64,000 bases of DNA from Candidatus Latescibacterota bacterium (lineage in GTDB: Bacteria; Latescibacterota; UBA2968; UBA8231), in NCBI GenBank assembly GCA_965197905.1, contig CBDAOB010000003.1, positions 352,001-416,000 on the forward strand, in the 5' to 3' direction. Numbering within the stretch: the stretch's first letter is position 1; each line of letters begins with the position of its first letter. Below are positions 33,729 through 60,684 of the stretch, piece by piece. Made by a program: the position numbers and the translations under genes. The notes below the pieces were generated by a model, which saw only the letters and a program-made list of their open reading frames with translations, made no database searches and was not told the origin of the DNA.

Positions 33729-35099
33729 TTACATCACATCGTAGCGCAGGAACGAGAAGTACGCCCCCAAAAAGAACACGATATTCCACACACAGAGAAT
33801 GAGAATGTCGATCCAGTTGAGCCGATCTGAGATGGCCGAGTCCTCGTAGGTAAACTGTGGATACCCCTCGATGTTCCGCGAACGCCAGTCATCCCGCTTG
33901 TTCGCTTCGATGTACACATCCAACCCGAAGTCTGTAATCTCGCGACGATATTGGGGCAGCTGATCGAGAAAGAGGTTGCGGTCGCGAATACCGGTTCCCG
34001 CCAGATCAGACGCAGCATAGGCGAACGAAGCAAATGGCGACGCCCTGGAGATGTTCTGCGCCAACGCAATCTGAGCATTCATGGTCTTCTGAAACTGCTC
34101 GTTGATGCGATCCTGAATGTCCATGACCTTCGGCAGGTGATCCTTCTGCATCGTGTTGTAGTTGGCCCACCATTTGGAGCCGTACCGCCTTGGAATGTCG
34201 GGATTCGCCTCCGCCCACACATCGACTTCCGCCTGAAATCTCTTCTCCTCCTCTCGCTTGAGCTGGTTTTTTTCCTTTTCGACCAGCACGAACGATCGTA
34301 CCGAAGTCAACTGTGAAGCGATATACGGCGCAGTGTTGGGAATGACGAGAACCATCAGGACCCAGACCATGAGAAGGATGGTAATGGACGTAGAGGCCAG
34401 ATGAGTGCGCGAGGAGATAAACATGCCAAGGGAGTAGATGACAGACAGATATAGAAGCGCCACCAGGAGAATGAGGCCGAGGAACGCCCAGTGCTCCTCG
34501 CGTAACTCGACGGTGGGAAAGAGCACTACAACCACGAGGCCACATAGCAGCGAGATGATAAACGGACCAATCATGGCAAGGTAGCCGCCGATCCATTTGG
34601 CAAGAATCACGACATCTCGAGGCACGCTGTAGGACATTAACAGCTTCAGAGTGCCCAACTCCTTCTCTCCGGATATGGAATCATAGCTAAAGGCTATGGC
34701 CAGCAGGCTCATCACGATGCCGATGAAGAACAGCAAGTCGATGGGCGGAAAGAGAAATGATACGGGATTGCCTTCGTAGTCGGCTTCGAATTGGGGTTCG
34801 CGAACACCACTAACTTTCGCAGTAACGGTCAGCTCTTCGTTGATGCCTTTGAAGAAGATCTGCATGGGATTCAACGGCTTGTCCACTTTGATGCCATCGA
34901 AAGCCAGATCCCTGGACTCTTCGATCTCGGTCTTATGCATGACGAGATTGGTCCGATAATCCGACAGTGCCTCCTTGTAATCTCTTGTCAGCACAAATGA
35001 GCTGGAGAGCATGATCACCAGGCAGATGATACACGCCAGAGCGAAGCGGAGGCTCAGCAGCTGTTCGAGCAGCTCCTTACGTATTAGCAGGAATAACAT
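33729..35099 (-). CDS. ABC-2-like transporter permease
   Basis: RKELLEQLLSLRF, YDSISGEKELGTLKLLMSYSVPRD, ends FLRYDVM; GGAGG RBS. Confidence 0.92.
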   Translation of the reverse strand: MLFLLIRKELLEQLLSLRFALACIICLVIMLSSSFVLTRDYKEALSDYRTNLVMHKTEIEESRDLAFDGIKVDKPLNPMQIFFKGINEELTVTAKVSGVREPQFEADYEGNPVSFLFPPIDLLFFIGIVMSLLAIAFSYDSISGEKELGTLKLLMSYSVPRDVVILAKWIGGYLAMIGPFIISLLCGLVVVVLFPTVELREEHWAFLGLILLVALLYLSVIYSLGMFISSRTHLASTSITILLMVWVLMVLVIPNTAPYIASQLTSVRSFVLVEKEKNQLKREEEKRFQAEVDVWAEANPDIPRRYGSKWWANYNTMQKDHLPKVMDIQDRINEQFQKTMNAQIALAQNISRASPFASFAYAASDLAGTGIRDRNLFLDQLPQYRREITDFGLDVYIEANKRDDWRSRNIEGYPQFTYEDSAISDRLNWIDILILCVWNIVFFLGAYFSFLRYDVM

Positions 35100-35117
35100 C
35101 GATACCTCCCGAGATTT

Positions 35118-36504
35118 TCAAGTTACGTCGTAACGCAGAAAGAATAGGTACGACAACATTAAAAAAAGCACGTTGAGAACGATAATCACAAGTAGCTCGA
35201 TCATCACCTCATCGATGGCATCGTCGACGCGCGCCGGAACCACCTGCAGCACGGGAAACACTTCATTTTGAAACCAACGCGGGTTCAGTACTCCCTCGTG
35301 AAACCTGTAATGCCATTCCTCGCCCCAACTATCGTACTCGGTGCGGAACCGGGCGTAGGAGGTCTTGAACCTGTCGGATAGATCTACTCCAGTACTGGCC
35401 AGCCCGGTGGCGGCGTAGGTGTAACTTGCGGACGGAGAGAGGCGCGACAACATTTTGCTCAAGTCGATCTGCTGCTGCAATCGTTCCCGGTAATGCTGAT
35501 CTAGCTTCCTTTTTCGATTCTCGCCTTCCTCGCGAACCTTGTTGCGCGCCTCCTGCATCTTTGTACCGAAAAAATACATGCTCGAGTTGAGGCGGTTCAC
35601 CCGCAACCGTGTCTCCCGGTCGATCGACGCCTTTTCAGCGGCGATCTTCTGTGCTGTGGGAACGGGTGACAGCACGCGCGCAAAGACCGGCGCGATATTG
35701 GGTATGACCAGAATCCAACAGATCCACGCGAACAGCGACACCAGCAGGGCCGTAGAGGCCTTGTGAGTCAGGGTTGAAATCATCAACCCCAATGCGAAGA
35801 ACATCGAGATGTAGAGCAGTGAGACGGCAAGTATCCAAATCAGACGCTCCGCCGCCTCACCGCTCAGCTGCACCGAGCCGGTGAACGTACGCGAAGCCGC
35901 CGAACACGGATACCATGAACGGGACCGCCAGCGATGCAAATCCCCCTATCCACTTGCCCATCAGCACCAGGTCGCGGGGCACGGAATTGGCGAGAAGGAG
36001 CTTGAGGGTTCCGCGTTCCTTTTCACCGCAGACGGTATCGAAAACAAACAGCACAGCCAATAGGCTGATAACGATGTTGACAATGTAGACGAAATCGGGC
36101 GTGGCGAACAAAGCGAATAAAGGATTGCGGTAGGGACCTTCGTTGATCTTGCGCGCCCCGTTGAGCCAGACATTCACCTGGGTCGGCAGCTTGCGTTCCA
36201 ACCCGAGGGCGAACATGCTGAGACGACCGGGCCGCCGCCCATGATAACTTCCTTCGGCGGAGAGCATCTCGTCGTGAAACCGTTGGTTGAAATCCTGTTC
36301 ATCCTTGCTATCGGAGTAGAGATTGCTAATGGCGCTCCGGTGCTCCGAGCGAGCCGCCTCGAAGCTGGCCACCGATCTGGCATACTCATCGCTGAGAATG
36401 AATATGCTGGCCTGAATGAGCACGAAGAACAAAACAAAGGTCACCATGAACCGCAGACTCAGTATGTTGGCAGCGATCTCTTTTACGATGAGCGAGACTA
36501 GCAT
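35118..36504 (-). pseudogene. ABC-2-like permease, frameshifted near 35885
   Basis: N-half (35857-36504) and C-half (35118-35939) together align with intact paralog 45059-46423. Confidence 0.88.
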
Positions 36505-36519
36505 CTATCGATGGACGCG

Positions 36520-37977
36520 TTAGTCGAATATGATCCAGCCGTACCTGTCTGGCCGGCGCGTCAATCCATACGTCGGCGTCCACATCGCAAGCTCCGAGTC
36601 CTTGGCGCTGCGCAGCCTGCCGACGCTGAACCCCCAGACGTCCCCCTTCTTTACAGGGGCATCGCTCACTGAAGGGAACATGATCTCGCACTCCATAGCC
36701 CAGGACTTGGGATTCACCTGCGTAGCGCTCTTCAGGTCGGCGTCCCACGTCCAGTCGAGGGAAGGACCTTTCCCGAAACCGATGCTGCGATCGCCGACCA
36801 CTCCGATGCTGTTTATGTAGATGTGGTGGAAAGCCCACTCGTCACGGTCTGCGTCGATGAAGATCTGCATACATGGGTCCTTATGGGTCGCGCCGTCGTC
36901 CTTCTCCTTTGACCACGTTTGCAGATCGCCGGTATCCTCCTCGTACCCTTTAACCGCCACCAACAAACTGCTATCCGTGTACGCCACGTACGCTTCGCTG
37001 CGGCCCGTACCGGGGATAGAACTCATGACCCTGATCATCTTGTAGAACTGGTCGATGCGTGCCGCGTTCTTCCAGACCGGATCGCTGAGGTCTCCGTCGA
37101 TCTGTACCGCCTCCCGCAGCCGAGGAACACGCAGGGCCATCTGATTCTTTTCCAACATGTCCAGTCCCCGCAGGCGCTGCCCGTTGTTGAAATAGAACTT
37201 CCCCAACCGCATCGTCGGATTCTTGCTGTCCGGTTTGAATCTGTGGGCTTTTAGATAGGCCTCCTCGGCGCCGTCCAGGTTCGCCTTGAGCGCTAGCTTG
37301 TCCCCTTCCTGGACCATTTGGGCCACCATTTTTTCCATAAGCTCCCCCGCGTGGCGGCGCAAGGTATCGTCAGTGGTCGCGTTGTAGATCTCCGCGGTCT
37401 TGTCGGCAAGCTCTTTCAGCTCCGCCTCAGTCAACTCCTTACCGCCTATGATCCGGTGGGCTCCCCGCGTGCCGATTCTTTGTGACCGCCACCCTCCGAG
37501 AAACTGAATAGCGCGCACCAGTTCCAATTGGGGTCTGGTTGCCGTTTCGACGTCCAGACGTCGCACGAGGTCGTGGATGAGCTCCTTTTTCCCGGAGTTG
37601 CCGAGCCGGCGGATGGCGATGGCTCGCACTTCTGGCGCCTCGTCGTGGGCCAGCTGCTTCAACGCGACGAGGATGCTCTGGGTAGCTTCGCGCTGGTAGA
37701 TGCGTCCAACCACATCTATGAGATCTACACGCCCGGAAACAGGTTTGGTCGGGTCGGCGGCTGCCTCCAGGATCGCAGGAAGCGACTCAGCATCGCTCAG
37801 CACCAGATCCATCCTGGCGCGCTCGCGGTCCTCACCCCCAGATATCACATCATCAATGGAATCTGAAGTAGGATCGCCGCAGCCCAGGCACAGAGCCAGC
37901 ACTCCGTAGGCCGCCACGAACCTGAAACTCAGGATGTTGTTGACGATTTCTTTACGAATGATATAGAGGAGGATCAT
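36520..37977 (-). CDS. HEAT/TPR/CBM9-like lipoprotein with permease-derived N-terminus
   Basis: MILLYIIRKEIVNNILSFRFVAAY, then LCLGCGD, DEAPEVRAIA, VQIDGDLSDPVW, YGWIIFD. Confidence 0.85.
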   Translation of the reverse strand: MILLYIIRKEIVNNILSFRFVAAYGVLALCLGCGDPTSDSIDDVISGGEDRERARMDLVLSDAESLPAILEAAADPTKPVSGRVDLIDVVGRIYQREATQSILVALKQLAHDEAPEVRAIAIRRLGNSGKKELIHDLVRRLDVETATRPQLELVRAIQFLGGWRSQRIGTRGAHRIIGGKELTEAELKELADKTAEIYNATTDDTLRRHAGELMEKMVAQMVQEGDKLALKANLDGAEEAYLKAHRFKPDSKNPTMRLGKFYFNNGQRLRGLDMLEKNQMALRVPRLREAVQIDGDLSDPVWKNAARIDQFYKMIRVMSSIPGTGRSEAYVAYTDSSLLVAVKGYEEDTGDLQTWSKEKDDGATHKDPCMQIFIDADRDEWAFHHIYINSIGVVGDRSIGFGKGPSLDWTWDADLKSATQVNPKSWAMECEIMFPSVSDAPVKKGDVWGFSVGRLRSAKDSELAMWTPTYGLTRRPDRYGWIIFD

Positions 37978-37989: not shown

Positions 37990-38712
37990 TCAGGCAGCTT
38001 GCTCCACCTCTCGGCTGACGTACTCCACGTAGAGCCGTTCGAGGTCTTCGTTGGCCAGCTCATCCCGGGTGAAGATGCGCACCAGGCTGCCCTCGATCAT
38101 GATGCCCACGCGGTCAGCGATCTCCTTGGCGCGAAAAATGTCGTGGGTGGTCATCCACACCGCCTTGTTCTCGCCGCGAAGATCGGCCAGCAACTGCAGA
38201 AATTCAGCCCCGGATTTGGGATCGAGGCCCGAGGTAGGCTCATCCAGCAGGATTACTTCGGCGTTCTTCACGATGGCGATCGCGATTCCCAACTTCTGTC
38301 GCATGCCTTTGGAAAATCCCTTCACGCGCCGGTTGAAGGCATCGCGCTGCAGTCCTACGCGCTCCATTATCTGTTCATACTCCGCATCGGTACTATCCTT
38401 GCGACCGCCGAGTTTTGCAAAGAAATCCAGGTTCTGCCGTGCCGTAAAATTTCCGTAAAGCATGACATTCTCGGACACATAAGCCACGTGTTTCTTGGCC
38501 TCCAGCGGATTCTTGGCCACGTCGATGCCACAGATCTTGACCGTCCCCGCAGTGGGTTCGGTAAAACCGAGGGAAACCATCAAGGTCGTGGTTTTGCCGG
38601 CCCCGTTGGCGCCAAGCATGGTAAAGATCTCGCCTGGCTGAATGGTCAGATCGAGGTTGTTCACCGCCCGGACATCGCCATAGTGCTTGGTCAAACCTTG
38701 GATCTCCAGCAT
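37990..38712 (-). CDS. ABC transporter ATP-binding protein (ABC-2 type)
   Basis: GANGAGKTT Walker A, FSKGMRQK signature, LLDEPTSGLD Walker B; GGAGG RBS. Confidence 0.96.
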   Translation of the reverse strand: MLEIQGLTKHYGDVRAVNNLDLTIQPGEIFTMLGANGAGKTTTLMVSLGFTEPTAGTVKICGIDVAKNPLEAKKHVAYVSENVMLYGNFTARQNLDFFAKLGGRKDSTDAEYEQIMERVGLQRDAFNRRVKGFSKGMRQKLGIAIAIVKNAEVILLDEPTSGLDPKSGAEFLQLLADLRGENKAVWMTTHDIFRAKEIADRVGIMIEGSLVRIFTRDELANEDLERLYVEYVSREVEQAA

Positions 38713-38800: not shown

Positions 38801-38819
38801 GCGGAGTTAACAATGTCAA
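38801..38819 (-). promoter_or_regulatory. Shared regulatory motif, copy 1 (upstream of ATPase operon)
   Basis: TTGACATTGTTAACTCCGC on minus; 18/19 identical to 43481-43499 on plus. Confidence 0.6.
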
Positions 38820-38917: not shown

Positions 38918-38946
38918 TTGACATGGTGCACCTTGCCCGCTAACGT
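38918..38946 (+). promoter_or_regulatory. Sigma-70 promoter for the tolC operon
   Basis: TTGACA-17 bp-TAACGT, 58 bp upstream of ATG 39005. Confidence 0.65.
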
Positions 38947-39004
38947 TGGCCACAAACCCCGAAAATCAAGCTCCATTCTGAAGAAACCGACTAACAGCAC
39001 TCTT

Positions 39005-40348
39005 ATGTTTTGTGGCGCAAGGAGGTTCTTGAGCGGCTTGGGCCTCTGTTTTTTTACGGCCGCGTCGGCGGACGATCGTGTCCAACTCGACATGAGCTTC
39101 TGTCTCGACTCGGCCCTGGAACACAATCGCACCCTGGTGCAGGGGCGGGAGAAGATCAAGGAGGAGGAGAGCGGCAGGGTTGTCGTGCACTCACGGTTCA
39201 TGCCCCACCTGGATCTGACTGCAAATTACGATGCGCTGCGTACGGATCGGCGGGGCGTGACGGATGATGAGATCTCCAGCAGGTTGCGTTTCACCCAGCG
39301 GCTGCTGGAGTTCGGACCCGACCTTGCGGCCGAAGTGCAGCTACGCGCCGACCTCCGTGAGGCGATCTACTCCTACCAGGACCAGATCTACGCTGTCTTT
39401 TCAGAGGTGTGGCGCACCTATCACCTGATTCTCCTGCAGGATCGCCAGCTTGCCATTCGCCAACAATCCCGGCAGGGGTTTCAGGAGGTCTACGAGCGCA
39501 AGCAGGCCCGATTCGAGCGCCGGCTCTCTGATGAGGAGGAGGTGCTCACCGCCTATTTGAATGTGCTCAACGAAGAGCTGGCCATCAACAACGTGGAGCG
39601 CGCCCAGTTCAACAACAAGATGACGCTGCTACGATTGATTGGGCGCCCCATCGGAACGCAAGTGGAACTTGCATCCAGCGAGGTGGGATTCACCCCCGAT
39701 CCCGACAGTTCGGTCCAGGTAGCGATGGGAAACAGCGTCCAGGTTGCACTTGCCGAGAAACGTCTAGAAGAGCAACAGCGCGTGGTGAGCGAGATCGGCT
39801 GGGACTACACCCCCAATCTAAAGGTAGGCGCCGGTGTGGAAGACGGCAGGCGCGACGCCAGCGTCAACGTCGACAAAGACGGCGAAACCTGGGGCGTGGA
39901 CGTGGAGTCGCGGTTGCGGTTGAGCGAGAAGGAGACCGAACCCGGGCCCGGAGATGAGACCCAGTGGTTTGCCCGGGTCGAGGCGCGCATTCCGATCTTT
40001 GAAGGGGGATCGCGCGTTGGGCGGGAGCGTTTGGAGAAGGCTCGGGAACGTCAGGTACAGGTCGAGGTCGCGGACCTGCGCGCCGCCACCGAGCTCCAGG
40101 TGCGACAGGCGTATCAGTCGATGCTGGAAGCAGAGGGGCGGCAGCAGATTCAGGAGGAGCAGGTGCGCATTGCCCGGCGCCGCCTGGAGATCAACCAGAT
40201 CCTCAAAGACAAGGGGCAGGCAGACGAGAGCAAGCTGGAACAGATACGCACCCAGTTCTTTGCAGCCCAGGATATCCTGTTCCAGAATCAGGCCACCTTC
40301 ATCGACCGTCAGGCCGATCTGCGCAAACGTATGGGCTACTTCGAATGA
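39005..40348 (+). CDS. TolC family outer membrane factor
   Basis: Signal peptide, LDMSFCLDSALEHNRTL, PHLDLTANY, RIPIFEGG, ELQVRQAY, two OEP-like halves. Confidence 0.88.
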   Translation: MFCGARRFLSGLGLCFFTAASADDRVQLDMSFCLDSALEHNRTLVQGREKIKEEESGRVVVHSRFMPHLDLTANYDALRTDRRGVTDDEISSRLRFTQRLLEFGPDLAAEVQLRADLREAIYSYQDQIYAVFSEVWRTYHLILLQDRQLAIRQQSRQGFQEVYERKQARFERRLSDEEEVLTAYLNVLNEELAINNVERAQFNNKMTLLRLIGRPIGTQVELASSEVGFTPDPDSSVQVAMGNSVQVALAEKRLEEQQRVVSEIGWDYTPNLKVGAGVEDGRRDASVNVDKDGETWGVDVESRLRLSEKETEPGPGDETQWFARVEARIPIFEGGSRVGRERLEKARERQVQVEVADLRAATELQVRQAYQSMLEAEGRQQIQEEQVRIARRRLEINQILKDKGQADESKLEQIRTQFFAAQDILFQNQATFIDRQADLRKRMGYFE

Positions 40349-41862
40349 CGCAGCGCAAGGTTCCCCACCTTCTTCTGTTGCTTTTGGTGCATGCTGCTGC
40401 GGCCTTCGGCGAGCAGAGCCTGACCAAGGAACAGCAACTGAGCAAGCTGAAGCTAAGAGAGCGGATTTTGGCATTGGAAGAACGACGTACAAGCTTGCAG
40501 ACCCACCGAGAAGAGCTGCAGACGACGAGAGAGCTCTTCGACGGAGGTTTCGTCGCGTTGCAGAAGCTCAAACAGACGCGCAATCGTTTCGAGCAGGCCC
40601 GCCTCGATTACGAGTGGGCGGAGATTGAACTCGAGGAGGCCAAGCTGGAACTGTTGAGAACAGCGACGCACATCATCGTCTCGGAGGCACGCAAGTACAA
40701 GACCGAAGAGGGCAAGTTCATGGTTGACGTCGTTCTTGAAAACGCTTCCGACATTCGCGACGCCCTGCTCGTGGACGCGGCGCTGACGGAGGAGGAGTTG
40801 CGCACTCTCCTGAAGGTAGAGCACATCTTTGCGTCGGTGAGTTATGGTCCGATCGTAGGCGAGCCTTACGAGATCCGCATCCCGTCTCTGGAGGTGGGGG
40901 AGCAACGCAAGATCACCTACCGCCTGCTTCGGGACGAAGAGGCGGTCTACGTCAACCTGAAGTATCTGGATATCAAAGATGAGAAGCCGGTGATCCTCAA
41001 GAAGGGAAGCCAGCAAGATCTTCCCAGCATCAACTCGGCGCAGTTCTCCCAGGAAGGCGAGCTCAATCAAACAGTGAGGTTCGGTCTAACACTCCAGCGC
41101 CTGGCGGAGGAGGAACGTAACTTCGCCCTCGCCGTGATTGGGCTGCCACCGCGGATCGACTACGCCTTCGTAAATCAGGGAGCGAAAGTCAATCAGATAA
41201 AATTCGACGAAACTACCTCGGAGGTGAAACTATCGCTGGAAATGGATATCCCGGAGAAGCTTGATCGGAAGCTGGTCGAGGTAACACGCACCTTTTTCGC
41301 TCTGGTTACGAACGTCAGCGAGTACGCCAAAATCAATGAGCTCCGCGCTCGCTACGGCGAAAACCAAGTCCAGGAAGAAGACGTGAAGTTGCTCAAAGCC
41401 AACTACGTTCGTCTCGAGCTGATTCCCAAGGGTATCGGCAAACTGGAGGTGCTGATCTCCAATCGGTACCTGGAGACCGAAGTCGGCGAGGAGCTGCAGT
41501 TTCGCGTCGAATTCCTCAACCGCGGCACGGTAGCGGTGCAGAATATCCGGGCCGAGCTCGACTTACCGTATGAATGGGAAAGCAGCGTTGAGCCGAAGCT
41601 CTTCAAGCTGCTTGAGCCCGGGGAGAGCGGTCCCATCTCGATCTGGTCCCGCCCGCCCGAGAACATCGCTGTAGGAGACTATGAAGTAGGGGTCGAAGCC
41701 CAGGGACAAGTTGGTACGGAAAACATCGAATCTCTGGAAAAGAACATCACCGTCCGCATCGGTGCCCGCTCCAACATTACCGGAAATGCCATTCTCATCG
41801 GGGTTCTCGTGTTGATGGTTGTGGGTATAGGTGTGGCCAGCGTCAAGATCAGTCGCAAGTAA
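40345..41862 (+). CDS. Signal peptide + alpha-hairpin + Ig-like/NEW3-like domains + C-terminal TM protein A (COG1470-like)
   Basis: VEFLNRGTVAVQNI..LPYEWESSVEP..LEPGES..PENIAVGDYEV NEW3-like motif; TM + KISRK tail. Confidence 0.8.
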   Translation: MTQRKVPHLLLLLLVHAAAAFGEQSLTKEQQLSKLKLRERILALEERRTSLQTHREELQTTRELFDGGFVALQKLKQTRNRFEQARLDYEWAEIELEEAKLELLRTATHIIVSEARKYKTEEGKFMVDVVLENASDIRDALLVDAALTEEELRTLLKVEHIFASVSYGPIVGEPYEIRIPSLEVGEQRKITYRLLRDEEAVYVNLKYLDIKDEKPVILKKGSQQDLPSINSAQFSQEGELNQTVRFGLTLQRLAEEERNFALAVIGLPPRIDYAFVNQGAKVNQIKFDETTSEVKLSLEMDIPEKLDRKLVEVTRTFFALVTNVSEYAKINELRARYGENQVQEEDVKLLKANYVRLELIPKGIGKLEVLISNRYLETEVGEELQFRVEFLNRGTVAVQNIRAELDLPYEWESSVEPKLFKLLEPGESGPISIWSRPPENIAVGDYEVGVEAQGQVGTENIESLEKNITVRIGARSNITGNAILIGVLVLMVVGIGVASVKISRK

Positions 41863-41864: not shown

Positions 41865-43397
41865 ATGCCAGCGCTTCGTAGAGTCCTCATGTCGGCAGTT
41901 CTCCTGCTCGCGGTTTTCAATGCTGGCGCCAAGGATCTGCGGACCAAAGAGCAGCGCCTGTACGATATTCAGCTGCGCAAATCCCAGTGGAAGGTGGACA
42001 ACGCCAGGCTCGACATGGAAATCAAGTTGAGCGACTACGAAGAGATCCAAGATCTCTTTAACCAGAAGATCGGCACCCTGGACGGCTTGAACGAAGCGCG
42101 ACGCAAATCGCAGCAGGCCAGGCTGAAATACGACCATGCCGTCATCGACCTGGAGTCCAGACGCCTCTCCTTCCTGCGCGACGCCACCCACATTTCGATC
42201 ATAGAGGCCAAGAAGTACAAAACGCCTGAAGGATACCGAAAGGTAGAGATCACCCTCGAAAACGCGTCCAATCTCAATCAGGCAGCCTCCCTCAATCCGG
42301 ACAAGAGCCTCGATCAGGTGCGCGACCTGCTGGAGATCCAGAACGTACAGGTCTCCTTGCGCCAGAGGGACAACTTGATCATTGGCGAGCCTTACGAGGT
42401 GCTGGTTCCCTCATTGAAATTGGGCGCCCGGCGCAAGCTCATGTTTCGCCTGTTGAACGACCGAGAATCGGTCAAGCTTTCTCTCACACTTCGCGACAAC
42501 CAACGCAAGGACGTACGCGTAGTTCTGCGCAAGGAGTCGCTGCAGGACATACCCACCATCAACTCGGTCCAGTTCTCCCAAGAGGGTGATCTGAACTCCA
42601 AGGTGGACTTCGATATCATTCTGGAACGGCTCGCGGAAGACGAAAAGACCTTTCGCCTGGCCGTAGTAAATCTGCCGAGTGAAATCGACTTTGCTTTCCT
42701 GGACAAGGCCACCAATGCCAGCTTGACCCAGGTGAAGTTCAGCGAGCAGGTTACCCGTCAGCAATTGGAATTGGAGATTCAGATTCCGGAGAAATTGAGC
42801 CGCCATTTCGTAGATCAGACGGTTGAATTCTACGTTTTCGTGACCGACGCGGAAGGATTCCAGCAGATCAGTAAGCTGAACAAGAAATACGGCACGAAAC
42901 GGATGGAGCTCGAGGATATAAATACGGTGAAGGGCAACAAAGAACGCTTCGAGCTCGTTCCGCGGGGCAAGGGCGCGCTCGAGACCATCATCGCCAACCG
43001 GTATCAGGAAATCAAGGTCGGCGAAGAGGTCACCGTACGCGTCGACTTGCTCAACACCGGGACCCTTGAAGTGGCAGATTCCCACATGATCCTTACAGCA
43101 CCGCTGGATTGGACCTACGAAGTGGTGCCGGACACGATTGCACGGATCATACCTGGCGAAAAGGAACCGGTGAACATAACATTCGTGCCCCCCGAAGAGA
43201 TGGGAGTGGGCGAGTATGGGATTCGTGTCGAAGCTGCCGGTTACGTCGGTGTAGAGAAGGTCGAAGCACCGGAGAAGGACCTGACTATTCGAGTGGAAGC
43301 CCAAGCCAGCGTCATCCGCAACGTCCTGATAATCGGCGCGGTTATCACCCTCGTCGTGGGAGTAGCTGTCGCGAGCATCAAGGTGAGTCGCCGGTGA
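41865..43397 (+). CDS. Signal peptide + alpha-hairpin + Ig-like/NEW3-like domains + C-terminal TM protein B
   Basis: Full-length paralog of A (ATHI..EA.KYKT.EG, P.INS.QFSQEG.LN, LLNTGTL..PLDW..PGEK..GEY); TM + KVSRR tail. Confidence 0.8.
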   Translation: MPALRRVLMSAVLLLAVFNAGAKDLRTKEQRLYDIQLRKSQWKVDNARLDMEIKLSDYEEIQDLFNQKIGTLDGLNEARRKSQQARLKYDHAVIDLESRRLSFLRDATHISIIEAKKYKTPEGYRKVEITLENASNLNQAASLNPDKSLDQVRDLLEIQNVQVSLRQRDNLIIGEPYEVLVPSLKLGARRKLMFRLLNDRESVKLSLTLRDNQRKDVRVVLRKESLQDIPTINSVQFSQEGDLNSKVDFDIILERLAEDEKTFRLAVVNLPSEIDFAFLDKATNASLTQVKFSEQVTRQQLELEIQIPEKLSRHFVDQTVEFYVFVTDAEGFQQISKLNKKYGTKRMELEDINTVKGNKERFELVPRGKGALETIIANRYQEIKVGEEVTVRVDLLNTGTLEVADSHMILTAPLDWTYEVVPDTIARIIPGEKEPVNITFVPPEEMGVGEYGIRVEAAGYVGVEKVEAPEKDLTIRVEAQASVIRNVLIIGAVITLVVGVAVASIKVSRR

Positions 43398-43480: not shown

Positions 43481-43499
43481 TTGACATTGTTAACTTCGC
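43481..43499 (+). promoter_or_regulatory. Shared regulatory motif, copy 2 (upstream of lipoprotein array)
   Basis: TTGACATTGTTAACTTCGC. Confidence 0.6.
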
Positions 43500-43631
43500 A
43501 GCATAGCTCTGGTAGAGACGGTTTGGTGCCGCAGCAAGCCTGTAAAGCGCAGCCGACCAACCGGAGACCATCAACCGGCTGAAATGTCCTTCATCCCTGG
43601 ATGCAACGCACCCGCACTCTCGGAGCGCAAA

Positions 43632-50580: not shown

Positions 50581-50605
50581 GTTTTCGTCACGACGTAACC
50601 TGACG

Positions 50606-52280: not shown

Positions 52281-52285
52281 GGGGA

Positions 52286-52477
52286 CTATACGTCTGACTT
52301 GACAAAGGGAGAGAGGTTGTCGATCTTCCCTGCGTGACAGGTTGGCTTGCGGAGCAATGCTCGCCCTACGTCGGCGGGCGTTGCTCCTTGGTAGCGTGGG
52401 TTTGGGGACGGAGTGGTCGACCACTCCTCTACTGCCGCGTGGCGCTCCTTCTCCGTGGGCTTGCGCGAGTGAGTCAT
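52286..52477 (-). CDS. Small IS-associated hypothetical protein
   Basis: ATGA overlap with the methylase gene; PNPRYQGATPADVGRALL; ends at the IS boundary. Confidence 0.5.
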   Translation of the reverse strand: MTHSRKPTEKERHAAVEEWSTTPSPNPRYQGATPADVGRALLRKPTCHAGKIDNLSPFVKSDV

Positions 52478-54977
52478 TGCCGAACCCCCAGTTTTGTTAT
52501 CAACTCTTCGGCCTCTTGGCGCCGCTCCACGATTCGCTTCATCCGACTCTTGATTCTTGACCGTTGCCTCGCATCTTTGGCCACAGGCAACTTCAGGTCC
52601 TTCCAGCGATCCCCGATGTTTGGCAGGGTCGTGTCAATAAAGACCTTGGATGGGATTTGTAGACGCGTCAGCGGGTGAGATAGCAGATAGGCCAAATACA
52701 ATCCGTCTATGCCATATGGATTGGGGGATTTTATGGCGCGAAGCACGACACAGTGGCTATTCAACAGAATCTCGGTGTCCGTTGGAAGCACGATCCCAAC
52801 ATCACCGGTGCGGTAACTTCCCTCTTTGACAAGCAATAGGTCCCACGGCTGTAAGTCTACGCCACTGCCCTTCACATCCAAGTAGACGTGCCTCGGAACA
52901 CTTGCCGTTGGATTCTTGTAGATGGACCAGTTGCCAATATCCCCATTGCGCACATATGGCACAGGTCCAGTTCCCTTATAAGCATTGTCGGGGGACCCGT
53001 GTCCCCTGAAGACAGTAATGACGCCCTCTCTGATTAGCCGATTCACTGTAACCATTTGAAGGCCCTGTCCCTTGGCCTGAACTCTCAATTGTTCGTCGTA
53101 GCCCTTCCAGTAGTAGCGAGGGACAAATACGTCGTTACGAATCGCGCTTGGTTCCACGATGAAAACATGCTCGTTATTCTTGTTAGACGAGTGTCTCAGT
53201 TCCTTCCTGATTATCTCGGTATCATCCCATTTCTCTTCCGTTACGATGCCATCCCGGACGCGGTACTTTGTCTTCCCCAAGTGATCGCGTCCCATCTCCT
53301 CAGCCACGCCAAAAACCACGGGTTTCTGCGGACGCCCCTTCTCGATGATCCAAAGAAGCGTCTTGGCGTTGCAGTGTGGCCTGAATGTGTTGTGCGGCAG
53401 ATCAATAACTGCCTTCACCCGCCCCCGCCTCTTGATGTAATCAACGATATACTTCTTCGATGGTGCATGGGCGTATGTTTCAGGGAGAACAATTGCAAGC
53501 CGCCCGCCGCTCTTCAGCATGTCGAGGCAACGCTCAATGAATAATTCCTGAGTGGGCGTTTTGCGCGGCTTCTCTTCACGTACCCCCCCCTTACGTGACC
53601 ACGAGTGGCCAAGATCGAACTCCGCAGATTCCGTTTGTGAAACTTTCGTATGCTTACTTCCAAATGGTGGATTTGTAAGGATCACGTCGAACTGGCGCAA
53701 TTGACCGCCCTCATCAATTGCAACGTCTCTGGCTGCACCTTCGAACTCCTCGGCGCGATGCAGGGAATTGGCTTGGGCAATGCAGCTCTTCCCGTCGCCG
53801 ATGATAGCCATATAGGCTTTCGTGATCTTGACGAGATCATTCTCTTTGTCAAGTCCGTGAGATCGTGTTCTTGGCGATATTGCGCTTCGCCTCTTCACGC
53901 TTATTTGGGGACAAGTTGGCCCACTTGCGCCCATGGTTCATGGTAGACTACATGTGTTGCAGGGCCGAAATGCAGGAAGGCGTCCACTGCCACACGCGGG
54001 GTCCATAATCGTTTCCCCGGGCCGTGGGTTGATTAGCTGGATTGCCGTCTTGACAACCTCTCGGGGAGTGAAGAACTCTCCCTTCTCTCCTGCAAACTTG
54101 CTCTCGGCGAAGACTTCAAACGCACCTCCTACTACGTCCTCGTCAGTCTCCAAGAGAGAGTATTCCTGTAGTTCGCCCACGACGTATGCAAGTGACTTGT
54201 TTTCAAGAAGAATCGTCTCGCCAGGATCAAATACTCCTTCCCCCGACAGCTCTCGCTTTACTCTGCCGAAAAGTTCATCTACGCGCCGCCGAACTTCGGA
54301 AAAACCGTTGTCGGCATCATGCCTGCCAACCCTGAACTCCGGGGTGGTATTGCGCGAAACAGCGCCGTGTTGTTCGTCCATGAGCTTGCAGAACAGAAGC
54401 TTCGTCATCTCGCTGCCGAGCTTTGCCCGACGGCTGATGTTCGTGTTTGTATACAACTCATTCAGGAGCCGCCGAAACGTTGCCTTCAAATGGGTGGCTT
54501 GGCGGAGATCGGAATATGTGTGCGTGCCGATGTCGTCAAGGCTTTGCCCGCATGTTGGAACTGCGAAAATGACACCGCTCGAAATAGTTGCAGATTCCGG
54601 TTCCTTGAGCAGGTATTCGATTTCCTTGCCATTTGTCCAAGCGCCCCACAGCGCCGATGTAGCGGTCATGTAGCTCTGTAATTGACCATCGCCGCACTGC
54701 GGTTATCCCTCTTGAAGGCGAGGATTCCGGCGATGTCAAGGTTCTGACTTCTCCTTGACGGATCATCCGGCCGATAGACTGCTAGCCCGGTCTCGGAAAA
54801 CAAGCGCCCGCTCTCGGGCCGCGCTGCCACGTTGGATTACGACTTCGATGTCAATGTGGCCCTTCGCATATCCATGGTCGGCAAGCGCCTCTTCAAAGTC
54901 CTGGCGCACGCGCTCTTCTGGCTTAGATGTATCGACTGACTTGCCGGTTGCGAAGTCGGGAACTTTTAGGTTGCTCA
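52474..54977 (-). pseudogene. Fused restriction-modification protein (HsdR_N-like + N6-adenine methylase + TRD/S-like), multiple frameshifts
   Basis: KPEERVRQ..GY..IDIEVVIQRGS; GEFFTPREVV, MDPACGSG (motif I); ILTNPPFG (motif IV); FIERCLDMLKSGGRLAIVLP; C-terminal TRD-like region. Confidence 0.85.
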
Positions 54978-55925
54978 CGCATACAAGGTCCTTGTAGAGA
55001 ACTCGGACTTGCCGACCATGGCGGCGACCACGTGTTGCATCTTTGCCAGCGTGTCCAGCTTGCAGGACGTTGTGGCGGCCGGCGAACTCCGTGGACGTAG
55101 CGGTGCAGGTGCTTGGCCGAGAGCCTCTGCTAGACGCCCTTGTGGGCAACGCTTGAGCATCGACCAGAAGCTCTCCACGCCGTTGGTGTGGATCCCGCAA
55201 CGAACATACTCTCCGCCACTGTGGTAGACCGCCTCGTGCCGCCTGCGGCCCTTGTAGGCGCTGGAGCCATCGGCGTAGACCATGAGCTTCCTTGTCCGAA
55301 GAGGAAGCAGTCCACTGGTGGAGAAGGTCCGCAAGGTCTCTTGGTCCGTCTGGTGGATCACTCTCGCCACAACTTGGTTCGTCTCTCGGTCCTTCGCACC
55401 GACCACCGCCACCTTGGGCAAAGGTCCAGGGCCCGCGAGCAACCTGTCTTTCTCGTGCAAAGTTCTGTTCCCTGCCTCCAACGTGAAGTCCGACTCCACC
55501 TCTACGGGGCCGGAGAACTTGGCTGCCACGTCCGAGTACGCTTCCCTGATCCGGTGCAGCATGAACCACGCCGTGGCCTGGCGGACACCGAGATCCCGAT
55601 GGAGCTTCATCGAGGATACGCCTTTGAGGCTGGTCATCTCACGATAGAACGCCCAAGCCGAGACGCGGAGGGGCAGCTTGCTGATCTTCCATCGCTGTGC
55701 CCGTCTGCAGGCTGAAGTATTTCTTGCATTCCCGGCAACGATAAGGCATGGGCTGGCCGCCATCGACTCGATAGGCTCCCTCAGTGATCCCGCACTTCAA
55801 GCAGCACATCTGCCCATCCGGCCAGTGCAGGCCCTCGAACCATTCAACGGCTTTCTCCTCGGTCCCGAACATCTCCGCCATCTCCATAACGGTGACGCCC
55901 TCTCGGTAGTGCTTGCCTGGTCCCA
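54975..55925 (-). pseudogene. IS1595-family transposase, heavily frameshifted, start missing
   Basis: GPGKHYREG..WPDG..CLKCG..PYRCRECKKYFS zinc ribbon; KGVSSMKLHRDLGV..TAWFMLHRIRE; GPVEV; VYADG; HTNGVESFWSMLKR; EFAGRHN. Confidence 0.9.
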
Positions 55926-55959
55926 AGAATCTGATTTCCCCCCTTCCACCAAAGAAGAT

Positions 55960-56469
55960 ACCCATTCGGGGTCCTTGACTACGCTGCCGCCCCGGGTTCA
56001 GACCAACACACTGATGGGTTACACCGACGAGGCGATGTACTGGGGTATCCGCTGTTTCGACGCCCACCCCGAAAGCCTGGTGGTCCTGCCGTTCGAAGAC
56101 AAGGATGACGCCAACAGGAAGCAAGATATCATCTCCTTGTTTTTCGATCGGAATCGAGACCGCAAGACGATCTCCGTAATGCTGATAAACAGCGAGGGAT
56201 ACGTGAGGGATGGCTATGATGATTACAACAAAAGCCGCCAGCGGGACCACTCCTGGGATGCGGACGGGACCGCGGCTACCTACGTCGGCGACGATTACTG
56301 GTCCGTTGAATTCGAGCTTCGCTGGGATCCTAAATACAATCCCCCCCCCGCTCCAGGTGACGTTTCTGGCCTAGACATTCCTCGCCTGTTTCGCGGGGGT
56401 GTCGAATGGAGTCAGCCGTTTCGCGGATACGGCGATCTCAATGCACCCGGCTATTTGGTCTATCGTTAG
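55960..56469 (+). pseudogene. Array lipoprotein, C-terminal CBM9-like fragment
   Basis: THSGSLTTLPPRVQTN...PGYLVYR aligns with the 57886 and 59299 copies; HEAT/TPR part absent. Confidence 0.88.
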
Positions 56470-56490: not shown

Positions 56491-57861
56491 ATGGCAATCG
56501 AACATCCTTTGATTCCCCACCCATTCGCACTGAGAGTGGGTTGCGTCCCAGCCGTCGCTCTGTGCCTGGTGGCCTGCGAATCATCCATTGAAGACAGTAT
56601 CAATGATCTTTCCAGCGGTCCCGATGAGCGTGCCGCCGCAAGACACGAGCTCATTTTAGCCTCGGACAAAGCCGTTGAGCCACTTATCGCCGCGCTGGAA
56701 TCGCGAGATGACACAAAGGCCCGTGCCGAGGTGGCCGATATTTTGGTAGGCATAATGGCGCGATCGAGAAACGAGCGAGTCGCAGGTGTGCTCAAGAAAC
56801 ATCTACTTGACGATCCCAACCCGATGGTGCGCGGACGTATTGCCGAGGAGCTCGGACTCTATTTGCGCTCCGAGTTTTTTGACGTTTTTCTGCAGGCGGC
56901 TTCCGATCCCTCGCCGCTGGTGCAAACTCCTGCGCTGCATGTTCTGGCCAACGTGATCGACCGGCTGAATGAAGAGCAGACCCAAACCTTGCGCCAGCTC
57001 GCCAGCGAGCGCGCCGGAGCCCAAGAGCGATCCGTCCGCGACGCCGCCCTGTACCTCGTGGAGGAATTTGTCGGCCGTTGGGCTCAAAAGGCTAGGGAAG
57101 CAGCACTAAAGGCGGATCTGTCGGTAGCGGATTCTATCTACAACGTGGTACTGACCTACGCACCTGCCAGCAGACAAGCAAACTACTACATGGGTAGCTT
57201 CTATCTCGAATACGGCGACCGCGAACACGGGTTGCAGCTGTTGCGGGAAAATCGCCTGCTGGTGGACGCGCCCCGGTTCCCGGCAGCACCGCGGATTGAC
57301 GGCCGACTGGACGATCCGGTTTGGGAGCATGCCGCCAGGATAGATTCGTTCTACACCCATTCCTCCGGATTACGAGCAACACTTCAACCCCGAGTTCAAA
57401 CCAACGTGTTCATCGGCTACACTGACGAGGCGTTGTATTGGGGTGTACACTGTTTCGACGCGCACCCTGATAGCCTGATTGTCGTGCGATACGACGACCT
57501 GACAGGGGGCGAGCAACACGACAGAATCTCGTTCCGTTTCGACCGCAACCTGGACAGGAAGACGATTGCCATGGTAGGTGTAAATAGCGCAGGGGTGGTG
57601 AGAGACGGCTGGAATGACTTCAACAAGAGCATCGAGCGCGACTACCATTGGGATGCGGAGGGCAGCGCAGCGGCGTATGTCGGCGACGATTTCTGGTCCC
57701 TCGAATTCGAGCTTCGTTGGGACCCGAAGTACCACCCCCGGCCGGTTCCTGGCGAGATGTCGGGCATAGATTTTGTCCGCATGTTCCGCACAGTCGAGTA
57801 CAGTCAAGCCTTTCCTGGGTATGATTACCTCAAGGCGACTGGATACCTGGTCTATCAATAA
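56491..57861 (+). CDS. HEAT/TPR/CBM9-like lipoprotein, array copy 6
   Basis: LVAC lipobox; family motifs. Confidence 0.9.
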   Translation: MAIEHPLIPHPFALRVGCVPAVALCLVACESSIEDSINDLSSGPDERAAARHELILASDKAVEPLIAALESRDDTKARAEVADILVGIMARSRNERVAGVLKKHLLDDPNPMVRGRIAEELGLYLRSEFFDVFLQAASDPSPLVQTPALHVLANVIDRLNEEQTQTLRQLASERAGAQERSVRDAALYLVEEFVGRWAQKAREAALKADLSVADSIYNVVLTYAPASRQANYYMGSFYLEYGDREHGLQLLRENRLLVDAPRFPAAPRIDGRLDDPVWEHAARIDSFYTHSSGLRATLQPRVQTNVFIGYTDEALYWGVHCFDAHPDSLIVVRYDDLTGGEQHDRISFRFDRNLDRKTIAMVGVNSAGVVRDGWNDFNKSIERDYHWDAEGSAAAYVGDDFWSLEFELRWDPKYHPRPVPGEMSGIDFVRMFRTVEYSQAFPGYDYLKATGYLVYQ

Positions 57862-57885: not shown

Positions 57886-59277
57886 ATGGCGATCCAGCAT
57901 CTCTTGATTCCCCACCACCGCTCCCGCGTGGCGACCGCGCTCGCGCTGAGAGGCCTCCATATCGTAGCCACGGCTTTGTTCCTCGCCGCTTGCGGGCCTT
58001 CCGTAGAAGACAGTATCGAGAAGCTGGGTGCCGGACCTGACGAGCGAGCCATGGGCAAACACGAGCTCATCCTGGCGAAGGACGAACACGTCGAGCCAAT
58101 CATCGCGGCGCTGGAAAGGCAGGATGGCAGCGACGTCCGTCCTGACTTGGCAGAGGTGCTAGTGGCCCGGTTCCTGCGATCGGAGAGCAAACGAATCTGG
58201 TCCGTTCTCGAAAAACACCTGCTGGAAGATTCCGACTCGCGGGTGCGCAGCCGTATTGCTGAAAAACTCGGGCTTCACCTCCGTTCCGAGCTTTTTGAGG
58301 TTTTCCTGCAGGCTGTTTCCGATCCGTCACCTGCGGTGCAATCCCCTGCGCTGCTCGCTCTTGGCAACGTTCTCGACCGCCTGACCATCGAACAGACCCA
58401 AACCTTGCGCCAGCTAGCCAGCGAGAGCGCGAAGGCTCAGGATCAGTCTGTTCGCGAAGCAGCACAATACTTGGTTGAGGAGTTCGTCGCCCGCTGGGCA
58501 GAGAAGGCGCGTGAGGAAGTTCTCAAGGCCAACGTTTCCCGCGCGGACTCGATTTACAATGTGGCGTTGGCTTATGCCCCGACCAGCAAGCAGGCAAACT
58601 ATTACCTTGGAAAATTCTATTACGAGAACGGCGAGCGCGAGCGCGGATTCCAGCTGCTGCGGGAACACCGTCTGCTGATCGACGTGCCCAGGTTCGCTTC
58701 AGCTCCACGAATCGACGGACGGCTGGATGACCGGATCTGGACAGGTGCCGGTAGAATCGATTCGTTTTACACCCATTCAAGTTCCCTCACAACACTGCCG
58801 CCCCGCGCGCAGACCAATGCGTTGATGGGCTACACCGACGAGGCTATCTACTGGGGGATTCGTTGCTTCGACGCGCACCCCGAAAGCCTCGTCGTCCTGC
58901 CGCTAGAAGACAAGGAAGACTCCAACCGGCATCAAGATATCATCAGTTGGTTCTTCGATCGAAACCTGGACCGGAAGACGTTCGCCATAATCCTGATAAA
59001 CAGCGAAGGATACATACGGGATGGCTGGGATGACCGCGAAAAAAGCCAGCAGCGGGACCACACCTGGGATGCGGACGCAACCGCGGCTACCTACGTCGGC
59101 GACGATTTCTGGTCCGTCGAACTCGAGCTTCGCTGGGATCCTAAATACCATCCGCCGCCGGTTCCCGGTGACGTCTCGGGTTTGGATATACCCCGTTTTT
59201 TCCGCGCTATAGAGTGGAGTCAGCCGTTTCGAGGATACCGGGGTGTGGACGCACCAGGGTATTTAGTCTATCAGTAA
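57886..59277 (+). CDS. HEAT/TPR/CBM9-like lipoprotein, array copy 7
   Basis: LAAC lipobox; family motifs. Confidence 0.9.
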   Translation: MAIQHLLIPHHRSRVATALALRGLHIVATALFLAACGPSVEDSIEKLGAGPDERAMGKHELILAKDEHVEPIIAALERQDGSDVRPDLAEVLVARFLRSESKRIWSVLEKHLLEDSDSRVRSRIAEKLGLHLRSELFEVFLQAVSDPSPAVQSPALLALGNVLDRLTIEQTQTLRQLASESAKAQDQSVREAAQYLVEEFVARWAEKAREEVLKANVSRADSIYNVALAYAPTSKQANYYLGKFYYENGERERGFQLLREHRLLIDVPRFASAPRIDGRLDDRIWTGAGRIDSFYTHSSSLTTLPPRAQTNALMGYTDEAIYWGIRCFDAHPESLVVLPLEDKEDSNRHQDIISWFFDRNLDRKTFAIILINSEGYIRDGWDDREKSQQRDHTWDADATAATYVGDDFWSVELELRWDPKYHPPPVPGDVSGLDIPRFFRAIEWSQPFRGYRGVDAPGYLVYQ

Positions 59278-59298
59278 GATCTTGCTAAGTAGCCTACC

Positions 59299-60684
59299 AT
59301 GGCAATCGAAGATCCTTTGATCCCCCACCATCGATTCCGCTCGACAGCCGCTTCCGCGATAAGCGGGATCTGTGTCACGGCTTTCTTCCTCGCCGCGTGC
59401 GGACCTTCTATAGAAGACAGCATCGAAAAGCTGGGTGCCGGACCCGACGAGCGGGCAATGGGCAAACACGAGCTCATCCTGGCTGGGGACGAAGACGTCG
59501 AGCCGATCATCGCGGCGCTGGAAAGGCAGAATGGCAACGAGGTTCGTCCCGATTTAGCCGAGGTTCTGGTGGCCCGGCTCCTGCGATCGGAAAGCAAGCG
59601 AATCTCGTCCGTTCTCGAAGAACACCTGCTGAAAGATCCCGACTCGCAGGTGCGCAGCCGTATTGCCAATAAACTCGGGCTTCACCTGCGCTCCGAGCAT
59701 TTTGACGTTTTCCTGCACGCCGTCTCCGATCCGTCACCTGCGGTGCAATCCCCTGCACTGCTCTCCCTGGGCAACGTGCTCGACCAGCTGACCGACGAAC
59801 AGAGTCAAACCTTGCGCCGACTCGCCAGCGAGGGCGCGAAGGCTCAGGATCAATCTGTGCGCGAAGCGGCACTCTACTTGGTGGAAGAGTTCGTCGCACG
59901 GTTGGCAGAGAAGGCGCGTGAAGAAGTTCTCAAGGCCAACGTGTCCCTAGCCGACTCGATCTACAACGTAGCACTGGCTTATGCCCCTACCAGCAAACAG
60001 GCAAACTATTACCTTGGGAAATTCTATTACGAGAACGGCCAGCGCGAGCGCGGATTCCAGCTGTTGCGGGAACACCGCCTGCTGGTCGACGTGCCCAGGT
60101 TCGCATCGGCTCCGCGGATCGACGGACGATTGGATGACCCGATCTGGGCAGGTGCTGGAAGAATTGATTCGTTTTACACCAATTCAAGATCGCTCACGAC
60201 GCTGCCGCCCCGCGTTCAGACCAATGCATTGATGGGCTACACCGACAAGGCTATCTACTGGGGGATTCGCTGCTTCGACGCGCACCCCGAAAGCCTCGTC
60301 GTCCTACCGCTCGAAGACAAAGACGACTCCAACCGGCAACAAGATATCATCCAATGGTTCTTCGATCGAAACCTGGACCGAAAGACATTCGCCGTGATCC
60401 TGATAAACAGCGAAGGATACATACGGGATGGCTGGGATGACCGCAACAAAAGCCAACAGCGGGACCACACCTGGGATGCGGACGCGACCGCGGCTGCCTA
60501 CGTCGGCGACGATTTCTGGTCCGTCGAACTTGAGCTTCGCTGGGATCCTATATACAATCCGCAGCCGGTTCCCGGTGACATCTCGGGCTTGGACTTACCC
60601 CGTCTTTTCCGCGTTATGGAGTGGAGTCAGCCGTTTCGGGGATACCGGGGTGTCGACGCACCGGGGTATTTGGTCTATGAGTAG
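59299..60684 (+). CDS. HEAT/TPR/CBM9-like lipoprotein, array copy 8
   Basis: LAAC lipobox; closest to copy 7 after the signal peptide. Confidence 0.9.
   Translation: MAIEDPLIPHHRFRSTAASAISGICVTAFFLAACGPSIEDSIEKLGAGPDERAMGKHELILAGDEDVEPIIAALERQNGNEVRPDLAEVLVARLLRSESKRISSVLEEHLLKDPDSQVRSRIANKLGLHLRSEHFDVFLHAVSDPSPAVQSPALLSLGNVLDQLTDEQSQTLRRLASEGAKAQDQSVREAALYLVEEFVARLAEKAREEVLKANVSLADSIYNVALAYAPTSKQANYYLGKFYYENGQRERGFQLLREHRLLVDVPRFASAPRIDGRLDDPIWAGAGRIDSFYTNSRSLTTLPPRVQTNALMGYTDKAIYWGIRCFDAHPESLVVLPLEDKDDSNRQQDIIQWFFDRNLDRKTFAVILINSEGYIRDGWDDRNKSQQRDHTWDADATAAAYVGDDFWSVELELRWDPIYNPQPVPGDISGLDLPRLFRVMEWSQPFRGYRGVDAPGYLVYE

Follow-up and report, generated by a model that had tools for sequence, protein, structure and literature searches.

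Tripartite assemblies that contain an ATP-binding cassette (ABC) transporter are named only for the type IV and type VII classes in the passages of a 2021 review that deal with them (PMC8277102). Here we describe a gene cluster of an uncultured Latescibacterota bacterium, located at positions 33729 to 60684 of the stretch of DNA analyzed (64,000 nt, G000:C3:352001-416000; hereafter, the window), which encodes an ABC ATPase, ABC-2 permeases, a TolC-family outer-membrane factor, two proteins with a NEW3 domain, and an array of lipoproteins. We consider it highly probable that the core of this system is tripartite, with two unlike adaptors joining a NosY-like ABC-2 heterodimer to TolC. The system is set apart from YbhGFSR-TolC, MacAB-TolC, TriABC, and NosDFY-NosL because one defining feature of each fails here, and no description of it was found in open-licence PMC and bioRxiv main texts. 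The first-pass annotation of the interval spoke of a candidate undescribed machine; its composition is indeed one that this literature did not return, but it represents a variant of tripartite pumps and not a categorically new device.

YbhGFSR(-TolC) of Escherichia coli resembles the system in its heterodimeric ABC-2-type permeases, its separate ATPase, and its likely adaptor-TolC coupling; the tripartite assembly itself is only predicted in the sections of the two sources that treat it (PMC13585988, PMC13739795). As in that system, two unlike ABC-2 permease subunits are found here, forming separate A and B clades in the permease tree and occurring as pairs. YbhG has the canonical adaptor architecture, and YbhF consists of two fused nucleotide-binding domains (NBDs), whereas the ATPase here is a single NBD of 240 aa and the system combines permeases of the NosY/DUF3526 type with a pair of adaptors on an immunoglobulin (Ig) stalk, a TolC of its own, and accessory lipoproteins. 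MacAB-TolC, a type VII ABC system, is likewise an ATP-driven tripartite pump with a homologous adaptor hairpin and a large periplasmic domain on its transporter. However, the permeases here carry ABC2_membrane_2 and DUF3526 in place of MacB_PCD or FtsX; Pfam detected neither of the latter in them, and the same library finds both in a true MacB of a relative (L071). Moreover, the adaptors here lack lipoyl and beta-barrel domains and are predicted to be anchored at the C terminus, whereas a 2015 review places the anchor of known adaptors at the N terminus (PMC4446572).

Two unlike adaptors also occur in TriABC-OpmH of Pseudomonas aeruginosa, where TriA and TriB are 36% identical, against 40% here, and are presumed to have non-equivalent roles in the part of the source that concerns them (PMC13328181). 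There, TriC is a proton-driven resistance-nodulation-division (RND) pump served by canonical adaptors, in contrast with the ABC-2 system of this locus. NosY is the closest solved permease, and the ATP cycle of NosDFY, in the portion of the report that describes it, binds and releases the ligand-carrying lipoprotein NosL (PMC13685413). NosY is, however, small and homodimeric, carries NosD on top, and works without TolC or adaptor, and NosL is an unrelated copper chaperone. Neither a NosD beta-helix nor NosL nor nosZ was found among the 32 open reading frames (ORFs) scanned against Pfam or the 18 scanned against NCBIfam.

ORF calling followed by these library scans resolved two divergent units. 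On the minus strand are the ATPase (37990 to 38712; Pfam ABC_tran), one lipoprotein, and two permease genes, encoding a NosY-like subunit A of 456 aa with two large periplasmic domains (33729 to 35099; ABC2_membrane_2 E 5e-32, DUF3526) and a subunit B (35118 to 36504). The plus-strand unit comprises the outer-membrane factor (38918 to 40348, likely start 39005; Pfam OEP E 3.6e-33), adaptor A (40345 to 41862), adaptor B (41865 to 43397), a third permease of the subunit B type that stands alone within the lipoprotein array (45059 to 46423; Pfam E 1.2e-35), and eight further intact lipoproteins. The two divergent operons with one ATPase and one TolC that had been described at first pass are therefore present; the three permease genes are there too, but only two are intact in the interval because 35118-36504 is split by a 5-bp deletion. 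Neither a solute-binding protein nor a glycoside hydrolase was detected by Pfam in the 32 ORFs scanned, as also previously noted.

The ATPase retains an intact Walker A, signature, Walker B, and H-loop. The genome encodes no other close member of its subfamily (next best match, 34%), and orthologues of this ATPase at adaptor loci of relatives are 61 to 98% identical. The TolC-family protein has a 447-aa orthologue in the same-genus genome G002 and matches TIGR01844 at E 7e-18, below the cut-off. The best Protein Data Bank (PDB) match of the permease family profile is NosY (7o0y, E 1.3e-16, profile positions 134-258), and a NosY-like A/B heterodimer is the likely form of the permease set. Counted over the whole genome, there is a single ATPase and a single TolC of this kind, along with two adaptors, seven permease genes, and 21 lipoprotein genes of nearly full length, of which one is broken.

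The two NEW3 proteins share 40% identity, are the only copies in the genome, and are 96 to 98% identical to the adaptors of the nearest relative, G002. They are paralogous and predicted to be membrane anchored, as had been proposed, and adaptor B repeats the architecture of adaptor A with a different hairpin tip. The AlphaFold model of adaptor A (predicted local distance difference test [pLDDT] 94, 108-row alignment) shows a signal helix, an alpha-hairpin at residues 28-107 (helices 28-66 and 72-107), three beta-sandwich domains of the Ig type, the last of which is NEW3, and a C-terminal helix (478-504) that is conserved with its basic tail. The N-terminal hydrophobic stretch resembles a cleaved signal peptide. 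In three longer members of the family (P0012, P0014, and P0022; 718-797 aa), the first Ig domain is repeated, so that the stalk is longer and might bridge a wider periplasm.

Searching the adaptor family profile against 177,635 PDB sequences (cut-off E<=1) gave 28 matches, of which 19 are periplasmic adaptors, including MexJ, ZneB, MacA, MexA, AcrA, and EmrA. The best of them, 6vej_P (E 8.4e-5), is a fusion of two adaptors, which we take to be TriAB. All 19 are restricted to profile positions 25-96, that is, to the hairpin; the remaining matches are six NEW3-type domains of sialidase or lacto-N-biosidase and three unrelated proteins. A hidden Markov model (HMM) of the hairpin alone, run against 29,923 ORFs of the same genome, recovered three proteins outside the family at E<1e-3, all of them HlyD-family adaptors adjoining RND pumps. 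In relatives, the adaptor profile also caught two MacA-like genes; one belongs to a MacAB-TolC operon confirmed by Pfam, and the hairpins of both align gap-free with those of the NEW3 adaptors. The hairpin superimposes on AcrA with Z 10.7 (root mean square deviation [rmsd] 1.4 over 80 residues) and on EmrA with Z 10.9. A PDB search with the single sequence of adaptor A gave nothing useful, and Foldseek with the whole model yielded nothing beyond generic Ig-chain proteins, at TM-scores no higher than about 0.3.

At the level of sequence profiles, the NEW3 hairpin is homologous to that of the pump adaptors AcrA, MexA, and MacA. The part of these adaptors known as the RLS tip motif (R119, L123, and S130 in MexA) is, in the passages describing it, not absolutely conserved (PMC4446572). 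Across the 108 family rows, the corresponding positions (R, L+4, S+11) hold Arg in 41, Leu in 98, and Ser or Thr in 86. No HlyD or lipoyl match was obtained by Pfam in the NEW3 proteins; an Ig stalk stands where lipoyl and beta-barrel domains would surround the hairpin, and the hairpin follows the signal helix directly, so that there is no space for an N-terminal lipoyl half. The pair therefore likely represents non-canonical periplasmic adaptors, predicted to have an adaptor-like role but set outside the canonical members because they have the Ig stalk in place of lipoyl and beta-barrel domains and, by prediction, a C-terminal in place of an N-terminal anchor. The earlier statement that no canonical membrane fusion protein is present holds for the architecture, but it overlooked the homologous hairpin.

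The adaptor profile at E<=1e-10 matched 68 of 151 genomes of the phylum, or 67 after removal of one match to a MacA hairpin only. A tandem pair is present in 32 of these 67, and the other 35 have a non-tandem adaptor. At 50% clustering, the family counts 495 relatives, some of which carry the labels Aminicenantes, Acidobacteriota, and Gemmatimonadota. Within the DNA fetched around 37 adaptor loci of relatives, which were selected from match lists and are not a random sample, TolC was found in 26 and an ATPase or permease in 29; in the window itself, the ABC motor, the adaptors, and the outer-membrane factor are all adjacent. These sequence data support the proposal of a trans-envelope exporter, with the NEW3 pair as adaptors and with TolC, adaptor, ATPase, and permeases co-occurring across the phylum. 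One motor with many permeases recurs in G102 (G102:C1, L053 and elsewhere), where 11 permease matches stand against one adaptor gene and these lipoproteins are absent. At 11 loci of family f1 (L033-L036 and L038-L044), the adaptor pair is followed by genes for a conserved 260-aa UVR-motif protein and for dihydrodipicolinate synthase-like proteins, and NtrC-type regulators adjoin the pump in some distant relatives (L060, L065, L066).

The tips of the adaptor hairpins and of TolC vary together. The Gly at the hairpin tip is kept in 12 of 14 A-type rows and mostly replaced in B-type rows (Lys in 9 of 16). Gly is absent from the first TolC tip at all 14 paired-adaptor loci and present at all 13 single-adaptor loci, the assignment of this tip being one that we presume by analogy. 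By comparison with TriA/TriB, the correlated tips fit two docking surfaces.

The intact lipoproteins of the interval, all of the HEAT-TPR-CBM9-fold family, number nine, as first proposed, each with a lipobox Cys. One lies in the ATPase operon and belongs to clade A (36520 to 37977, minus strand; Cys33). The eight on the plus strand are part of the clade B expansion, identified by Pfam scan, genome search, and tree: lipoproteins 1 (43584 to 44993), 2 (46427 to 47782), 3 (47807 to 49195), 4 (49192 to 50580), 5 (50324 to 51988, likely start near 50606), 7 (56491 to 57861), 8 (57886 to 59277), and 9 (59299 to 60684), the last being 86% identical to lipoprotein 8. The model of lipoprotein 3 (pLDDT 94) consists of a HEAT solenoid that begins four residues past the lipidated Cys, one TPR, and then a domain of CBM9 fold, which matches 1i82 with Z 19.6 (rmsd 2.3, 171 residues aligned) and by Foldseek at E 2e-9. 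TmCBM9-2 and CkCBM9.3 share this fold, with a weak sequence match (E 7e-5). Here, however, the domain sits on a lipidated HEAT-TPR stalk and is not attached to a hydrolase.

Several lines of evidence link these lipoproteins to the pump. In a census of the 151 genomes, in which at most 11 candidates per genome were scored, full-length lipoproteins occurred in 22: 20 of the 32 with a tandem adaptor pair, none of the 35 with a non-tandem adaptor, and 2 of the 84 without adaptor. The system also reaches beyond the interval, with 10 scattered near-full-length lipoprotein genes (one broken) and two satellite cassettes composed of permease B, permease A, and a lipoprotein, both without an ATPase, adaptor, or TolC of their own. 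The first lies in the window on the minus strand and encodes a clade A lipoprotein of the same fold (11482 to 12963; 44% identical to that at 36520), a permease of subunit A type (12903 to 14324; 39% to 33729-35099), and one of subunit B type (14422 to 15816; 42% to 45059-46423), as placed by the trees; the second is at C5:722287-726510 (L001). The core operon itself contains a lipoprotein gene in G027, G021, and G068, of which G068 comes from another family, and a permease is nearby in 5 of 35 lipoprotein-centred loci of relatives. Type I permeases pair with clade A lipoproteins (L001, the main operon, L097, L099, and L105) and type II permeases with clade B (L037, L040, and L084), a match that is broad only and has two exceptions, both in this window.

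A 14-bp motif, TTGACATTGTTAAC, occurs as an exact copy 5' of the ATPase operon (38806 to 38819, minus strand), as a candidate promoter or operator, and again 5' of the lipoprotein array (43481 to 43494, plus strand). These are the only two copies in the 6.69-Mb genome, where 0.015 would be expected from base composition, and they are kept in G002, suggesting that regulation is shared or that a promoter was duplicated. A scan for sigma-70 promoters and terminators gave output at chance level, and the motif was not among its reports. Complex prediction for the permease B and the lipoprotein of the C5 satellite gave 0.40 against 0.00 for the best control, with at least 58% of contacts shared between runs and partner pLDDT of at least 82. 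The mark applied to such predictions is reached by 116 of 157 solved pairs and 2 of 215 mismatched pairs, only 18 of the solved pairs but both mismatches reaching it at 0.60 or under, and the model lends weak support to docking of the lipoprotein on the permease. A search for lipoprotein-permease fusions among longer proteins, which is weak evidence, returned 5 matches, none of them a fusion.

The reading that we favor, at little better than even confidence, is a tripartite export pump in which the lipoproteins are optional, exchangeable modules that catch a ligand and dock on the permease. It builds on the components and their domains, the hairpin homology, the A/B split of the permeases, and the co-occurrence of these parts, all of which are observed. 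In this pump, the ABC ATPase would drive the NosY-like permease heterodimer, and a ring of the two unlike adaptors would bridge it to the TolC-type channel. Three copies of each adaptor (A3B3), tethered by their C-terminal helices and lifted on three Ig domains, would meet two different tips per TolC subunit, as TriA and TriB do in TriABC. Since the genome holds a single set of ATPase, adaptors, and TolC but seven permease genes, this set would work with several permease pairs. The lipoprotein would bind the periplasmic domain of permease B, probably via HEAT/TPR, while its CBM9-fold domain holds the ligand, taken from the periplasm or the outer leaflet. ATP-driven permease motion, similar to that in NosDFY and MacB, would unload the ligand from the docked lipoprotein and push it through the adaptor ring into the TolC duct. 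A stronger form of the proposal, a plug-and-play machine in which several permease pairs share an ATPase, a hetero-hexameric Ig-stalk adaptor, and TolC, and about 20 lipoproteins program periplasmic capture and expulsion, we put forward only tentatively.

A number of observations weigh against this reading. The structural match of the hairpin is unspecific, as F-BAR, MORC2, and ROP reach the same Z of about 10, and the Arg of the RLS motif is absent from both adaptors of the window (T-L-A and E-L-T). TolC is missing from the fetched DNA at 11 of the 37 adaptor loci, of which three are at contig ends, two are apparently disrupted, and six belong to families f3 and f4, in which the adaptor hairpin is one heptad shorter. 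The correlation between adaptor and TolC tips may be one evolutionary event, and because the paired-adaptor genomes are mostly of one family, few independent events underlie the counts of co-occurrence and of tips. The lipoproteins are absent from 47 of the 67 adaptor-bearing genomes and are for this reason accessory and not core. Two genomes, G005 and G018, have a lipoprotein and no adaptor, G005 also being without a permease match, and no permease lies near 30 of the 35 lipoprotein loci of relatives, some of which are on short contigs. The complex prediction used the clade A pair from C5 and not a member of the array.

The ligand domain raises further points of the same kind. In CBM9, the tryptophan clamp includes Trp71, according to the section of the source describing the site (PMC8280721). 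The equivalent residue is found in none of the 22 members of the clade B expansion, against 21 of the 32 other members; eight of the nine window lipoproteins fall in this Trp-less clade, and the ninth has His. This loss counts against simple glycan binding. Strong diversification limited to the ligand domain was not borne out by the paralogues, whose mean entropy is 1.12 in the CBM domain, 1.07 in HEAT, and 0.88 in TPR; variation peaks in the loops of the CBM domain, at residues 301-360. A glycan or glycoconjugate would still be the most likely ligand; the glycan handling suggested at first pass fits the fold, but the clamp residue is missing from the expanded clade. Two other proteins with such a domain adjoin permeases in relatives: a nucleotidyltransferase (NTP_transf_5)-CBM9 fusion (L069:6476-8296, G152) and a protein of at least 866 aa with an N-terminal CBM9-like domain (L105:1-2598, G033).

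The absence of the lipoproteins from most adaptor-bearing genomes, the two genomes that have them without adaptor, and the loci away from permeases would also be explained if the core were as described and the lipoproteins were bystanders, a genus-level expansion at a rearrangement hotspot with a separate envelope function. Similarly, 10 of the 21 copies in the genome itself are away from permeases, and the array forms a genus-specific clade (22 rows, Shimodaira-Hasegawa-like approximate likelihood ratio test [SH-aLRT] 99, in a quick tree) interrupted by restriction-modification (RM) and insertion sequence (IS) DNA. We nevertheless regard this explanation as unlikely, given the recurring cassettes of a lipoprotein with a permease pair, the lipoprotein within the core operon of several genera and another family, the common 14-bp motif, and the weak support from complex prediction. 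The docking-module reading, which the first-pass annotation had anticipated as interchangeable specificity modules, retains moderate support from the nested distribution, the satellites, the motif, and the model, but not as part of the core, since the lipoproteins occur in only 20 of the 67 adaptor-bearing genomes.

The lipoproteins could instead be the cargo, which the pump would extract from the inner membrane as LolCDE does and then release or display at the surface, where their CBM9-fold domains would bind external glycans. One pump faces 21 diversified and mostly scattered lipoprotein genes, a sugar-binding fold may be more useful outside the cell, and the neighboring slot in relatives is filled by other secreted or periplasmic proteins, such as TPR, DUF1573, heparinase II/III, and DsbA-like proteins. 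Yet a solenoid plus beta-sandwich of 48 kDa, once folded, would pass through a TolC duct only with difficulty, the helix starting 4 residues after the lipidated Cys leaves no flexible tether, and most pump-bearing genomes are without such cargo. We hold this alternative to be a shade less likely than the preceding one.

The kinship of the permeases with NosY brings in a mechanical device akin to NosDFY, which would move a ligand or cofactor between the lipoprotein and a periplasmic partner, with TolC and adaptor as scaffold or release valve in place of an unbroken export duct. The binding and release of NosL occur in the ATP cycle of NosDFY with no sulfur transport in the cryo-electron microscopy maps, as far as the relevant part of the report goes (PMC13685413). 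The CBM9 fold also includes haem-binding domains, although these relatives score lower (2ivf_C, Z 15.1). Conservation of TolC and of the docking hairpin across the phylum makes this device improbable, as does the lack, among the ORFs scanned, of any gene resembling those for NosD, NosL, or NosZ. Least probable is an importer run in reverse, with TolC held open and the lipoproteins acting as non-canonical glycan solute-binding proteins: the many ligand-fold lipoproteins and the missing classical solute-binding protein would suit it, but the ABC-2 fold of the permeases is of exporter type, the interval has no glycoside hydrolase, and we know of no TolC-based importer.

Some parts of the locus have been rearranged. 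The 5-bp deletion in the permease gene 35118-36504 lies near 35884 and leaves two ORFs that each match part of the family; the gene is intact in G002. Contigs of two samples, each sample from a different study, carry the deletion-bearing version without a gap, and an assembly error is rejected on this ground as the source of the frameshift. The intact permease 45059-46423 could stand in for the broken gene, with whose two halves it shares 61% and 49% identity. The lipoprotein 36520-37977 has a first stretch of 34 aa that is 74% identical to the N terminus of the type II permease B 14422-15816, which suggests that a rearrangement recruited a permease start as signal peptide; the junction is also present in G002.

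Within the array, an inserted stretch that is no part of the machine (about 52285 to 55960, minus strand) holds fragmented N6-methyltransferase and HsdR-like genes and an IS1595 remnant (Pfam N6_Mtase, HSDR_N_2, and DDE_Tnp_IS1595). No second copy of it was found in the genome, and it is absent from G002. It is flanked on the plus strand by an N-terminal lipoprotein fragment (52008 to 52284; 78% identical to residues 3-85 of lipoprotein 7) and a C-terminal fragment (55960 to 56469, start approximate; 80% identical to residues 296-463 of lipoprotein 8). That the two fragments were a single split gene is doubtful, since the N-terminal part resembles lipoprotein 7 and the C-terminal part lipoprotein 8.

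Directly 3' of the array is a PCMT-like methyltransferase gene (60690-61859, minus strand), in a place occupied by other genes in G002; its nearest relatives are methyltransferases of peptide-maturase systems (TIGR04188 E 1e-53, below the cut-off). It is followed by at least two tandem NtrC-type sigma-54 regulators and then a 1443-aa hybrid kinase with a propeller sensor (61933-64000 and L009:3-5760). On the other side, a perfect sigma-54-type box (30688-30702, minus strand) lies upstream of a split AMP-binding gene (29106-30116 and 28531-29079) and adjoins a sigma-54 activator (30923-32530) whose sensor part is a separate ORF (32512-33363). No sigma-54 box was found at the promoters of the machine.

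If the pump reading is correct, a NosY-like transporter coupled to TolC would join the known tripartite ABC types, with an adaptor made of a borrowed hairpin on an Ig stalk and anchored at the end opposite to that of known adaptors. The hairpin alone would then be a portable TolC-docking module. Such pumps would be overlooked by annotation because their adaptors are labelled "NEW3 domain-containing" or "hypothetical." This window adds a pairing of adaptors, satellite cassettes with permeases, and a lipoprotein repertoire linked to the pump. Should the plug-and-play form hold, exporter specificity would come from exchangeable binding lipoproteins, as a mirror image of the solute-binding proteins of importers. 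If the lipoproteins do set specificity, the locus would offer a testable model of how uncultured Latescibacterota diversify envelope function without duplicating the motor or the channel.

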